NCBI GenBank assembly: GCA_964016885.1
Contig: OZ024743.1
Coordinates: 288,796,001 to 288,860,000, forward strand
Source: Eledone cirrhosa
Taxonomy: Eukaryota
Direction of reading: 5' to 3'
Length of the DNA stretch: 64,000 bases
Shown: positions 28,921 to 61,150 of the stretch, one piece after another
Layout of the letters: each line of letters opens with the position of its first letter
Position numbering within the stretch: position 1 is the first letter of the stretch
Program-made: the position numbers and the translations under genes
Notes under the pieces: generated by a model
Seen by the model: the letters and a program-made list of their open reading frames with translations, nothing else
Told to the model about the DNA's origin: nothing
Database searches by the model: none

Positions 28921-29065
28921 ATAGTAATAATAATAAATGTGAAGACTAAAATCCAAAGAGGGCTCGATAAGGATAAATATATATCAAATATATAAGAACC
29001 CTAGAGCAAATTTTTTATTAAGATAACAGATTAAAGATTAAAGATTAATCTGTTATTTTAATAAA
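28921..29065 (-). repeat. Mini derivative of the 39945-40730 fold-back family
   Basis: Reverse complement of the 40630-40730 tail, followed by a short hairpin of the arm terminus. Confidence 0.8.
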
Positions 29066-29363
29066 CATATATATATATATATATATATATATATATATAT
29101 ATATATATACATACATATATATATATATATATATATATATATATATATATATATATATATATATATATATATATATATATATATATATGCATGTGTATGT
29201 GTGTATGTGTGTATGTGTGTAAAATGTAAACAGAAATAACAGAAATAATAAAAGAAATGGTACATGGAAGGAATATATTAGCTTAACGCTTGAAATAGCA
29301 GGAAGAGAGTCTTAACCTTTCGGAGATTAGTTCTTCATCAGAGGAAAGAATGATATATATATA

Positions 29364-29800
29364 TAATATTAATTCAAAATATTAACAAAATAGATATTCT
29401 TGTGATCAATTATATTTTATTATACATATTTAAGAGGTACTGAGTTAAGTTCAACAGTACGTCCTCATCAGATAAAATAAGATGATACATGACATACCCT
29501 GACATAGTAGATGGTTAAGATTCAGTCATGACTACCATGACTGAATCTTAACCATCTACTATGTCAGGGTATGTCATGTATCATCTTATTTTATCTGATG
29601 AGGACGTACTGTTGAACTTAACTCAGTACCTCTTAAATATGTATAATAAAATATAATTGATCACAAGAATATCTATTTTGTTAATATTTTGAATTAATAT
29701 TAATAACTCTGGAAACCCTTTTTTTTACCGGTTGAGTGGTTCCAATCTATTGTAAAACTCAATCTTTGATGTATACAGTGAACCTTGTTTAACTTTTAAA
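29364..29800 (+). mobile_element. 339-bp palindrome (centre ~29541) plus ~100-bp tail in (TA)n, with HHR-like motif at 29587-29653
   Basis: Arms 29364-29538 and 29544-29702. tattttat CTGATGA g..gtactg...cagtac.. TAAA tatgta TA ataaaata (G12 is T in both arms). Confidence 0.88.
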
Positions 29801-30636
29801 TATATATATATATATTGCTATTTTTAGTGGCGAGGTAGACAATACGTCTATGTTTACTTCCGCTTATACTACGGACTGGTTCATGCATAGGTCAAATTTT
29901 CGGCCCCATTCGATCCTGTGCTAGACGGCAGATGGCAATATATTTTGCCGTTCCTGGGACTTTTAGTCCTAGGAAAGGAAAATGCTTTCTGATGATCTAA
30001 ACATTTCCATTGGAAGTCCCTAGGATCTCCAATCTTTTGTGAAGTGAAACCGATCGGTAAAAGCAATTGGAATGGGTAAATATTTAAATTATATTTTTTA
30101 ATTTATTTTAAAGAATTGTTTAAATCTTGCTTGCTCCGCTTATCTCAATATATATATATATATATATATGTTGGTGCTGGCGTTTTGTGTATGATTTTTA
30201 TTTTTAGAAAAGGGGATGATTGAGCTCGTCTACTGCATATATATATATATATATATATATATATATATATATATATATATATATATATATATGTGTGTGT
30301 GTGTGTGTGTGTGTGAGTGTGTGTGTTTACGAAGCTGGTTGAAGAGAATCGGTATAGCTTCTGCTATTTCTCACTCACTTAATTACATAATCAGGTTTGT
30401 ATTATTGAAAATACCAAACTATTACTCAGAGTGAACACATACGTTGATGAGAAAAATAAATGACTTCGTGTGGGTAATGATATTAGTGTATAAAATATAC
30501 CCGGACCAATGCATCGGTTTCTGCCTTCAGGTTTGTCAGCAATAAGCCCAATTGAAACCTTCATTCACAGTAGTTAGCTAATATCAGCAGATACTACGTA
30601 ATTTGATTCGGAATACTTCGTCAGCGAATGGTAGCC

Positions 30637-30742
30637 TCCCAAGAATGAAAATACTTGTTTAACCGACTATATATATATATATATATATATATATATATAT
30701 ATATATATATAGTCGGTTAAACAAGTATTTTCATTCTTGGGA
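30637..30742. repeat. Perfect ~31-bp inverted repeat around a (TA)n core
   Basis: tcccaagaatgaaaatacttgtttaaccgac-(TA)n-gtcggttaaacaagtattttcattcttggga. Confidence 0.92.
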
Positions 30743-31012
30743 ATATTAATAATAATATTCGATTCGTTTGTAATTATGCAAACAAGCCATATTTTTAAAT
30801 CCATGTCAGTAGAATGAGCTCCTCATTCTTGTTCTTGTAAACAGAACTGCAGACACTAATGTTTCTGGGTATTACGCTTCATGAATACAGTTCACTGTTC
30901 ACCTACACACTGTCAGTGCTAGTGAAAATAAATATATGATATTTTCTAAATTATACAGTGACTGATCAGTCTGGTTAGCATATTGGCTGATCAGTCAGAT
31001 CTGCTTATTAGC
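30743..31012 (-). mobile_element. HHR-bearing repeat family (copies at 63214-63960)
   Basis: Reverse complement matches 63530-63770. Minus strand reads gaactgta TTCATGA ... GAAA cattagtg TC tgcagttc. Confidence 0.7.
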
Positions 31013-31113
31013 AGTGGTAGTGGTAGCGGTGTTAGTATTAATAATAATCGTGGTAGGAGATAGGGGGGGGGGGTATTATTAATGATGTTGTTGTGATATA
31101 TACGTGTGTGTGT

Positions 31114-31375
31114 GGAGGCACGTGGCCTAGTGGTAAGTGTGTTGGACTTACGATCATAACGTCATGGGTTCGATTCCTGGGCTGCGTGTTGTGTTCTTAA
31201 GCAAAACACTTCATTTCACGTTGCTCCAGTATACTCAGCTGAAAATGAGTACCAGCAATACCTGGAGGTTTAACCCTGGCGTCCTGCCCACGGGGAGTCT
31301 TGTACTCTCAGTCGCTTCACGCCATGAAACCGGGATAAGCAAATCAGCCTTCTGGCTTAAGACATACTTTAGACT
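31114..31375 (+). mobile_element. Second tRNA-derived SINE family
   Basis: A box TGGCCTAGTGG, B box GGTTCGATTCC, body ttaagcaaaacacttcatttcacgttgctccag..ctcagctg. Older relatives at ~22310 and ~52795. Confidence 0.8.
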
Positions 31376-58198: not shown

Positions 58199-58232
58199 TG
58201 TACTATATATTTATCCGGACTAATGTCTAAAG

Positions 58233-58570
58233 CAGGGGTTCTCAACCTTTTTTTCGCTGTGGACCACCAAAATAAGTAATTTTTTCCTGTGGACCACCTA
58301 AACTTTTAAATCTTTTGTAATAGAACTGCTACTTATAAGCATCAGTAGATGTTTTTTTTCAATGAATTAGAAAATGCTATTATCATGTCGCAGTGCCTAA
58401 AAATCTACGCAAATAAACAGCTGAAGTCGTACTTATGCGAAGAATAAGAACAGCGCATTAAGTCAAATGCATGGATCAAAAAAGAATTTGCTATTGAAAA
58501 TGTTCTGTGGACCACCTGAATTTTCCTGTGGACCACTAGTGGTCCACATGGACCAGGTTGAGAACCCCTG
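58233..58570. mobile_element. hAT (Charlie-like) MITE
   Basis: TIRs caggggttctcaacc and ggttgagaacccctg; TSD gtctaaag/gtctatag; subterminal ctgtggaccac repeats. Confidence 0.88.
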
Positions 58571-59711
58571 GTCTATAGTATTATTCTATTAACCCTTTAG
58601 CAATCACGGTATTGATCGGTGGATAATAATCACTATCGGGTTAACAGGGAGGAAACAGTTACTTATATGATTCCTTACTATTCCACTTGTATATATGGAC
58701 CCAGAAGTTTAGGAAAGTTAATGTAGACATTAGTGAGAATTTAAAGGGGAACGTGAAGAGCTGTAATCATATAACAGAAGGCGACATATTATCCACAGTA
58801 TAGACATACATTTACTGGCATTTTATAGGAAAAAATAGAATTGGGCATTTTGTTTTCTCAATTTTAAAATGATTTGATGAGCTTAAAAGTTCATCAAAAT
58901 GAGGTTTATCTCGGTTGCATGTAACGTTAAGCAACTGATGTCACAGGATTTCTTCCGTGTTGGATGCCAGTCCATCGCAAGTTTAAACACGAGCAGCTGG
59001 TACTCATGACTTTCCCGTCTTTTTGTTGTTATTTCTGTTCTTTATACCAAATGAAGGCGATAAGTTTCGCAGAGACTTTCAAGCGTTGGTCAAATTACAT
59101 GAACTAATATAAACAGAAACCAAAGCCTACCATCAGCGCCCCTAGTATTATACATACACATATTAAGATTGCCTCAAGTATAACGAAATTAGATAAATGT
59201 ATATATGTTTTGCAGTATTTGTTCCGAATCTCTGTATTCTGAGGTCGAATCCCACAGATATCAACCATGCGTTTGACTGTTTAGAATTCGTTCAAATAAT
59301 TAAACGTCCATGGTGTTGGATTACTGGAATAGTTACTGCATCAGAGAATATGACTTTTGTTATTTTTTATGGGTCCATGACTTCTGAGTTAAAACTCTGA
59401 TGTGTCAACTTGGCAGTGGTGATCGGAAGCAGGCTGAATCCGTTGAGCGAAATAGCTCAATCCCATGTACCTTAGGTGCCTTTATCGGAATTAATTTCTT
59501 TTACAAACAGTCAGACTAGGACTCCGATTTGAAGATACATTCTTTTCTCTCTCCTACAAGGATGGAAAGGTCATGGCCATTATCCTTTCCTTCCTTGACT
59601 ACATAATACATTTTATATCATGGGGCCATCTGCAATTTAATTAAGAATATTTTATATAACAAAACTGTAAAGTACGTTCAGTTGACTAAAGTTGTATTAT
59701 TTACATTTCTG

Positions 59712-59925
59712 AGGGCGGTGGATTGGCAGTATCGGTAGAGGGTCGGACATCATGCTTTGCAAGAAAGGAGTAACGGCCCTTTATGGTCTGAGTTCAAATC
59801 CCGCCGAGGTTAACTTTGCTTTTCATCCTAACGGGGTCGATAAAATAAAGTACCAGTAATACTGGGGTCGATTTAAGCGACTTTCCCTTCCCCCAAATTA
59901 CTGGCCTTGTGTCTATATAAGAAAC
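59712..59925 (+). mobile_element. tRNA-derived SINE
   Basis: Near-consensus copy. Confidence 0.88.
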
Positions 59926-60112
59926 CATAAGAAACCAGTATTTACATTGCTGATTATATAAGCATTTCCCTACATCCAAAGTTTGAATAACGTGGAATAT
60001 GTAACGATACCAAATCTACTGTAATATCAAAAACCAAAACAAAAGGTGAGATTCCTTTAATACATAAACCTGCGCTAAAATTGGAAGCGATCAGCAAATT
60101 TGTGGATGTACA

Positions 60113-60185
60113 AACCATTAGAAGGGTATTGGTTTATAACCAATAGAAGAGTATTGGTTTATAACCAATAGAAGGGTATTGGTTT
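60113..60185. repeat. 25-bp tandem repeat x3 of hairpin units
   Basis: aaccaatagaagggtattggtttat repeated. Confidence 0.85.
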
Positions 60186-61077
60186 AGATAAATTACTTGA
60201 CAATGTTTTGCAAGATGAAACATTTACTTTTATAGTAGCTGAGTCATAAGAAGCCTCTGGGAAAGACTATGCAAGACAACTTTCGGGTGTCATGGATGTG
60301 GAGAATTTCACTTAAAATTCAAAGAGCTGAGAGGTTTCTTTTGAGGAGCCCATTCGTCAGATACTCACACACACCTTCTTTGTTCTCCGGGGTTCGAGCC
60401 GATATATCAACTAAACCCCTTTCAGAGAAGTCCTGTCTCCGAGATAGGAGGTCAGAAGGAAGAAAGTAAGTTATTTTCAATTTAGAGACCTTCTTTGAAT
60501 GCTTGCAATAGAGTTAAATCGTTGCTGCGAGGATTTGTGCAGCAAATTCTGAGCGCAATTCACTGATGGTCCTTTCTTTAATACAGAAAATCTCCTAATT
60601 AGATTCATATAGAAAGTTCATTACATGAAAACGCAGAACCAGATTGAAGAATTATGAAGAATTGAAGAATTATGAATGCAATAGTAGAAAACTAAATATT
60701 GTCATAGGTTTATGGTATTCAACGCTAAATTCATAGAAATATAGAAATAAAGATTTTGAGTCCAATTCCCACTAATAACTCAGTTTTCAATGAATTTCAG
60801 ATTGCCATTTATTTTTTCTTATAAAAGTTAACCACACACACAGACATACACACACACACACACACACACACACGCATAAATAAATAAATAAATAAATAAA
60901 TATATATATATATATATATATATATATATATATATATATATATATATATATATATATATATATATTATATGTATGTATATATATATGTTGCTATTAAGTT
61001 AGACATAGCCTGGGCCAATAAAGGCCGAAAGTTATCAAAGTTTTATATATAAATATACATATATATATATATATATA

Positions 61078-61150
61078 TAGTAATAATAATAAATTTGAAG
61101 GGTGAAAGCAGCGATTCTTTGCTTAAACTTTAATCTGTTATTTTAATAAA
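61078..61150 (-). repeat. 73-bp mini derivative of the 39945-40730 family
   Basis: Inverted tail end tagtaataataataaatttgaag joined to the arm end ggtgaaagcagcgattctttgc...aataaa. Confidence 0.85.

Follow-up and report, generated by a model that had tools for sequence, protein, structure and literature searches.

We analyzed the insertions that lie beside (TA)n repeats in a 64,000-nt stretch of the Eledone cirrhosa genome (contig OZ024743.1, forward-strand positions 288,796,001 to 288,860,000; hereafter the window, with coordinates counted from its first base). One family of these insertions, F1, represented by the copy at 39945-40728, is, judging from its sequence, the 3' end of a Hydra-clade Penelope-like element (PLE), made up of a pseudo-long terminal repeat (pLTR) and a tail of ~90 nt. 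Inverted F1 copies consist of a direct half, which finishes at a fixed tail end, and an inverted arm, which finishes at a fixed arm end, and nearly every one of them carries one end of each kind. Such copies probably form when the two sides of a cut (TA)n target prime on a single sense RNA, the tail site serving one side and the arm site the other, and the two cDNAs are then end-joined. The shortest copies (minis) are likely to be run-off cDNAs of a capped sense transcript, made by this kind of twin priming.

Parent element and its two fixed ends

In the search for the parent of F1, the inverted open reading frame (ORF) piece of one locus (L003) was used as a protein query and retrieved many near-identical copies, from which we chose 20 loci for their long frames; the 3,264-nt reference unit is one natural copy (L122). 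ORFs of 713 aa are present in 12 of the 20 chosen loci. The encoded protein has at least 500 full-length homologues at E≤1e-20 among the matches listed, and shows reverse transcriptase (RT) and GIY-YIG motifs by eye; it gave no match in Pfam or in the PDB, and the domain names rest on these motifs. Compared with the motif set described for the Hydra clade in the accessible part of PMC8557442, the protein has a C-terminal GIY-YIG, DKT, a CxCX5C linker, and CxxC and CxH around the endonuclease (EN) end, with no CCHH; the RW-K/R motif reads RWR in F1 and RWK in the window ORF beginning at 25801. The features of EN+ PLEs are likewise present: a single ORF combining RT and GIY-YIG, direct or inverted partial tandems (pLTRs), and an optional tail at one end. 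A tandem pLTR precedes the ORF in 13 of the 20 loci, and inverted copies are common. The parents of F3 and F8843 are of Hydra type and also encode an RT/GIY-YIG protein, the F2 parent is a weak match (E 5e-6), and for F29365 no parent ORF was found within 1.5 kb. A sequence-only reading of this DNA had proposed that the insertions arise without a transposase, and the coding capacity of the parent bears this out.

That reading had also described four F1 copies with an arm end at one (TA)n junction and a tail end at the other, and both kinds of end map to single places on the unit: the arm ends at 39945, 29065, 55317 and 61150 to position ~3175 (positions 3175-3178 are common with the TA target), and the tail ends at 40728, 28924, 55384 and 61080 to position 3264. 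The exact arm-end motif occurs beside TA at least 13,333 times genome-wide and the tail-end motif at least 10,322 times, while the reversed-pattern controls gave 0, and the ends beside TA are therefore not due to chance. Random variation of the termini, which would have told against two defined priming positions, was not seen in F1. Raw reads from three runs contain strand-switch joints, and at the arm site each run shows 2,310-2,924 loose (TA)n ends (counts from restriction-site-associated DNA reads with many duplicates, which do not equal insertion counts), so the structures exist in the DNA and are not an assembly artefact. The tail end had been taken for a possible end of the RNA. This part does not stand: in 13 of the 20 ORF-bearing loci the tail end continues straight into the ORF leader, which places it at an internal RNA position and makes 3' rapid amplification of cDNA ends, the check suggested earlier, the wrong test for it. 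The arm end, too, is an internal RNA position. An apparent third fixed end, within the tail, proved to be BLAST over-extension into (TA)n and was gone once the full reference was used.

To describe the pairing of the ends quantitatively, we combined the 100 listed arm matches with the listed tail matches from the same span (contig C1:1-48.7 Mb, position-ordered; 78 of 100) and assigned end classes by hand to the resulting 155 insertions. These comprise 100 arm+tail copies, 6 arm+tail copies of which one piece was too short to be found by BLAST, 3 ambiguous cases, 1 arm+arm copy, no tail+tail copy, 4 interrupted copies, 23 with an arm only and 18 with a tail only. Two-ended inverted copies are thus the majority (107/155). 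Among the independent resolved inverted insertions, 105 of 106 pair an arm with a tail (1 arm+arm, 0 tail+tail), a count that rests on hand-curated classes and excludes the 3 ambiguous and 4 unresolved cases; against an expectation of 50%, p=7e-31 (computed before one segmental duplicate was removed). Automated calls in the other families gave arm+tail in 9/9 (F2), 16/16 (F8843), 9/9 (F29365) and 47/52 (F3), the F3 exceptions being 4 arm+arm calls, two of them at one locus, and 1 tail+tail. The arm+tail F1 insertions have a median length of 261 bp (18/100 are ≤130 bp), and TA repeats flank both ends in 90 of the 100. The earlier statement that copies keep both termini as they shrink therefore holds for inverted insertions; it fails for the 41 of 155 insertions that have one end only and, within the window, for the palindrome at 38325-38558, which has a tail at neither end.

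Junctions, probable run-off ends and long copies

The internal junction could be resolved in 95 of the 100 arm+tail F1 insertions. Of these junctions 89 are distinct and 25 carry inserted bases. Microhomology of ≥2 nt is present in 45 of the 70 insert-free junctions, as against 21.6% in simulated blunt joins (p=2e-14), and remains in excess when all 95 are counted (45/95, p=2e-8). In the window, the two joins through 3-nt microhomologies that had been noted before are found at 55344-55346 and 61098-61100, while the third mini (28924) joins by a short duplication. The junction of the 55317 mini recurs at 15 genome places (12 inspected) and that of the 61080 mini at 3 (3 inspected), all with unrelated flanks; set beside 13,333 arm ends, these numbers do not describe minis that share one amplified junction. 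The fixed ends, their one-of-each pairing and the diverse, microhomology-rich junctions together support the proposal that both target sides prime at two defined RNA positions.

The lengths of the two halves are coupled: arm and direct half are long/long in 35 insertions, long/short in 6, short/long in 1 and short/short in 18 (Fisher p=2e-9; the test leaves out 40 tail-only direct halves). The depth at which the halves join had been called variable. This is correct insofar as nearly all junctions differ, but the depth peaks in two places, one being the arm site and the other a likely capped 5' end. The second peak is a hot spot at unit 3099-3116, where 29/100 F1 arms and 14/100 direct halves end, and where raw reads show a depth step of about twofold. 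Its modal end base is an A in the context YYA(+1)NW, in F1 as in F3 (23/138 ends), F8843 (9/49) and F29365 (4/40), against a background of 5-7%. We take this context to be an initiator (Inr), and the box found upstream of it in some families to be a TATA box.

The base that follows the hot spot gives a further indication of how these ends arose. A genome-wide pattern for F1 cDNAs that reach unit 3105 and then leave the template had 2,553 matches, and we counted the first 100 listed by hand: 19 are read-through variants, and the other 81 are followed on the cDNA strand by C (58), T (15) or G (8), a distribution from which ends followed by A were excluded by the design of the pattern and in which some rows are two halves of one insertion. 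After removal of 19 run-offs for which the partner could have served as template, the extra C remains in 39 of 62 (p≤2e-6). It adjoins the (TA)n target directly in several rows, and in paired rows it is present on both halves of one insertion. A local control in F1 gave an extra C in 10/12 ends at the hot spot vs 1/19 at the next eight positions; the effect is weaker in F3 (10/25 vs 6/56). Untemplated G has been read as the mark of mRNA cap copying (PMC3287187), and in Drosophila virilis Penelope and in a Chlamys element transcription starts within the pLTR. From the one-base hot spot, the extra C and these pLTR-internal starts we therefore infer that the short halves ran off the template at the capped 5' end of a sense RNA.

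Several observations weigh against this reading, in addition to the exclusions already given with the pairing and extra-base counts. F2 has only a broad cluster of ends with no single mode, a TATA-like motif at about -30 is present in only 2 of the 5 families (F3 and F29365), and F8843 has no G excess at its mode (1/14). The start site, cap and strand of the RNA are read from DNA, and an extra C would also result, without any cap, from an RT with a preference for adding C wherever it runs off.

Stalling of the RT at a hammerhead ribozyme was considered as a cause of the hot spot and rejected: the hot spot lies at the edge of the motif in F1, and ~60-70 nt upstream of the core in F8843 and F29365. 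Hammerhead core-like motifs occur in F1, F2 and F8843, with stem pairing unconfirmed and a fold that is not supportive; an Rfam search returned no family at the gathering score, and no hammerhead even at loose thresholds. Near a possible hammerhead cut, at unit 3150-3155 (window 40601-40606), 5' ends form a small cluster; since the anchoring pattern confounds it, we make no claim for it.

Eighteen copies cross a full unit into the upstream pLTR. Of these, 4 end before the hot spot, 1 ends at it and 13 extend beyond it; that is, 13 of the 14 that reached the hot spot passed it, although the lower stop rate by itself does not reach significance (p=0.07). A capped one-unit mRNA cannot be the template of copies that traverse a full unit. 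Their templates could be tandem transcripts or circular RNA, the latter having been proposed for more-than-unit PLE copies in the accessible text of PMC4209133. As a separate observation, the sequence of four F1 insertions (L037/L065, L204, L219 and L236) switches from the pLTR region (unit ~3020-3085) to the opening 80-120 nt of the unit or back, which suggests template jumps between both RNA ends.

Proposed priming scheme, alternatives and known systems

These results can be placed in a single scheme, in which cutting, order of priming, cap and RNA form are the inferred parts. The GIY-YIG domain would cut both strands of the (TA)n target; one side would then prime at the tail site and the other at the arm site, ~90 nt upstream. 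With the enzyme at the pLTR-ORF junction, near a capped 5' end, both cDNAs would be short (≤~74 and ~160 nt in F1) and would run off at the cap or stop earlier, and end-joining would turn them into MITE-looking palindromes and minis (MITE, miniature inverted-repeat transposable element). The tail cDNA would often stop inside the tail or at the arm site, as if meeting the second primer. RNAs with more than one unit would yield long copies, and priming from one side only would yield a one-ended copy. A point against the scheme is that both halves often copy the same stretch of RNA, which needs strand displacement or two like RNAs.

Two like RNAs are the basis of an alternative in which twin priming takes place on separate RNAs, with the subunits of an enzyme dimer set on different start sites. 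We regard this as unlikely. Overlapping halves are common, since in 68 of 95 junctions the direct half extends at least as far 5' as unit 3178, and a dimer has been predicted for the anole enzyme (PMC11167929, accessible part); but the length coupling would require two RNAs from one length class, and direct halves accumulate at the arm site (13/100 begin at unit 3164-3178, p=0.004), as collision on one RNA predicts. It is very improbable that the minis result instead from later, microhomology-mediated deletion of the centre of long inverted insertions. Long palindromes are unstable, the junction microhomology fits such a process, and internal deletions are seen in some sampled F1 copies. Deletions of this kind have been reported in rotifer PLEs as well (PMC3846280, accessible part). 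Yet F1 divergence does not change with size (1.8, 2.2, 2.1 and 1.6% from the smallest to the largest class; rho -0.05), and gradual deletion is disfavoured for this reason; of 26 long/long junctions a single one is symmetric to within 15 nt, and deletion predicts neither a one-base hot spot with an untemplated C nor one-of-each ends.

An inverted half could also be made by fold-back or self-priming, including the antisense-template model published in PMC3846280 (accessible part), and several window copies are indeed near-perfect palindromes. We give this little credence, as the geometry of the junctions has already weakened it: symmetry to within 10 nt is limited to 10 of 95, the arm extends further 5' in 62, the direct half does so in 23 (the two are level in 10), and in 27, where the direct half is tail only, the halves have no common sequence, so that neither direction of fold-back covers all cases. 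The extra C on both halves of one insertion moreover points to two cDNAs from sense RNA. Least credible is a MITE family, a non-autonomous DNA transposon multiplied as one unit within TA repeats. Inverted termini, small size and a TA target would suit it, and TA-targeting DNA transposons are reported (MuTAnT; PMC4486113); against it, the ends are asymmetric, most junctions are individual, those of the window recur at only 15 and 3 places, and the sequence is collinear with an RT-encoding parent. For F1 this explanation is refuted: there is neither a uniform unit with identical terminal inverted repeats nor a transposase parent. Later deletion, antisense self-priming and MITE amplification all fit poorly.

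Beyond the two-site priming on one RNA that we prefer, a wider proposal is possible but somewhat doubtful. Two-site twin priming would be the normal route of PLE integration, fed by two forms of RNA: a capped leader, which would be the source of tens of thousands of cap-marked palindromes that mimic MITEs and preserve the transcription start at their centre, and tandem or ribozyme-circularised RNA, which would give the long copies. Families of the F3 type, with almost all run-offs, would then be short RNA-borne elements that make a new palindrome at each insertion. If this is true, part of the MITE annotation in TA-rich animal genomes is retrotransposed.

L1 twin priming was reportedly described by Ostertag and Kazazian in 2001. 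The PLE route works like twin priming, not in its L1 form. According to the accessible part of PMC11702581, a second target end primes internally in L1 too, one half is inverted, and microhomology or end-joining is found at the internal junction; in L1, however, the position of the second site varies, there is hardly any overlap between the halves, and most insertions are not inverted, whereas in the PLE copies the second site is fixed, the halves often overlap and inverted two-ended copies predominate. The closest biochemical parallel is Poseidon of the green anole (PAc), for which the accessible text of PMC11167929 describes cutting and extension of both strands in vitro at an AT-rich target, a template that spans the pLTR-ORF junction, and two adjacent internal RT start sites bounding the tail; steps after priming are given there as unvalidated. 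PAc belongs to another clade, no start-site difference between its strands was seen in vitro while each side here uses one site per insertion, and its starts are described as non-homologous while the arm site here shares 3-6 nt with the TA target.

The Hydra clade as presented in the accessible part of PMC8557442 has the same (TA)n target, pLTRs, inverted 5'-truncated copy and tail often at one end only. The F1 unit is longer (3,264 nt vs generally <3 kb), as are the tails (42-110 nt vs 30-40), and that account, in its accessible part, contains no end-pairing counts, run-off class or cap signature; it names the inverted structures of PLEs as an open problem. The antisense self-priming model (Arkhipova et al. 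2013, PMC3846280, accessible part) shares with our copies head-to-head inverted pLTRs, junction palindromes, and TATA and Inr motifs in the pLTR, but the junction geometry and the extra C found here favour a sense template and two target-primed cDNAs. Hammerhead-bearing PLEs and non-LTR retrozymes (PMC4209133; bioRxiv 10.64898/2026.07.22.740005; accessible parts of both) provide short PLE-derived non-coding copies, and hammerhead pairs 100-700 bp apart on opposite strands are noted there; the minis, in contrast, are inverted rather than tandem, and the F1 hammerhead is unconfirmed.

Thus inverted pLTRs, a one-sided tail and (TA)n targeting (PMC8557442) and two internal RT start sites (PMC11167929) are already published, as far as the accessible parts of these sources go. 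For strict pairing, length coupling and cap-marked run-offs in PLEs we found no report in the open-access literature, taken without the supplements of these two papers. F1 and its relatives are new members of a known clade with an undescribed, quantifiable integration signature. Seen in vivo, the signature combines a single start site for each target end, coupling of the two lengths and capped run-off; it fits two primers on a sense template better than antisense self-priming, and it makes the question of PLE inverted repeats testable in the in vitro system already available. Inverted-repeat elements of small size in (TA)n can be by-products of a retroelement and not MITEs, and PLE promoters can be located from DNA alone by the centres of palindromes. 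A 2026 octopus repeat annotation, in its accessible part, lists PLEs and MITEs without linking them.

Other elements of the window

The host genome is 3.0 Gb in size and rich in microsatellites, and once simple repeats are masked many palindromes with (TA)n at their borders appear in the window. The PLE-related features are collected in the table below. It includes two further links drawn by the sequence-only reading, from 31718 to 47505 and from 32980 to 48761, which proved correct: the minis belong to F2 and F3, respectively.

Table. PLE-derived features in the window (coordinates from its first base; empty cell, no entry)
Position	Strand	Feature	Remarks
8843..9266	+	F8843 perfect palindrome with ~90-nt tail	Centre at the family hot spot, with one extra base
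23294..24962	+	F3 parent fragment: 3' part of a broken Hydra-type ORF continuing into an arm-ended pLTR	46-48% identity to F1 protein
24989..28821	+	Hydra-type PLE: inverted arm (24989-25759), ORF (25801-27969), pLTR, tail	ORF 39% identical to F1 protein
28924..29065	-	F1 mini: full tail with ~25 nt of pLTR, joined by a short duplication to a ~21-nt arm	
29365..29799	+	F29365 palindrome with ~96-nt tail	Direct half begins at the family hot spot
31718..32155	-	F2 near-perfect palindrome	~42-nt tail at left end only
32980..33792	-	F3 inverted insertion	~67-nt tail at left end
34185..34251	-	F3 copy, tail only	
38325..38558		Perfect palindrome, neither end tailed	Apparent arm+arm exception
39945..40193	-	F1 inverted arm	Arm site back to unit ~2927
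40194..40728	+	F1 direct half: end of 3' untranslated region, pLTR and tail (~40634-40728)	Followed by (TA)15
40556	+	F1 unit position 3105: run-off hot spot, Inr-like A, putative capped transcription start	Mirror base in arm at 40016
40561..40584	+	F1 hammerhead-like core, variant position 4, unconfirmed	Motif scan; no Rfam hammerhead match
47505..47687		F2 mini: 24-nt tail piece and ~165-nt arm	
48479..48713	+	Palindrome with tail, further family	Family search gave 6 places, too few to use
48762..48858		F3 mini: tail piece and ~32-nt arm	
55317..55384	+	F1 mini: arm (unit 3151-3175) and final 41 nt of tail	3-nt overlap
61080..61150	-	F1 mini: final 21 nt of tail and arm (unit 3124-3175)	3-nt overlap

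The palindrome at 38325 belongs to a family whose other copies have a short tail. The F1 mini at 28924 is located in the 3' (TA)n tract of the Hydra-type PLE at 24989..28821, and stacked PLE insertions of different families, often back to back, share a (TA)n tract both there (window 28822-29188) and at L195, L302, L318 and L338. More inverted or palindromic elements lie beside TA repeats at 8237-8735, 9311-9706, 38689-38976 and 39022-39760; few copies of these were fetched. Inside the 3' region of F1, at 40194-40477, there is a direct repeat of ~140 nt with ~82% identity. Outside the window, an F2 tandem array at contig C1:309579954-309603590 consists of five one-strand matches ~4.8 kb apart, and at L247 copies of the 38325 family stand in tandem and an F1 arm end is joined directly to F2 sequence across a common AT-rich word.

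GIY-YIG fragments with Pfam matches at 34684-35202 (+) and 41231-41872 (-) probably belong to non-Hydra PLE clades. A long interspersed nuclear element (LINE) at 11145-15593 (+) has an ORF1-like frame and Pfam matches to AP endonuclease, RT and zf-RVT, with a stop separating the endonuclease and RT frames; a second LINE 3' copy, at 43289-45053 (-), is 82% identical to it. An interspersed repeat of ~190 bp, resembling a short interspersed nuclear element, is present in more than 10 copies in the window (including 816-1002, 6467-6661, 7680-7868, 16069-16250 and 46853-47043) and also splits several PLE copies elsewhere in the genome.

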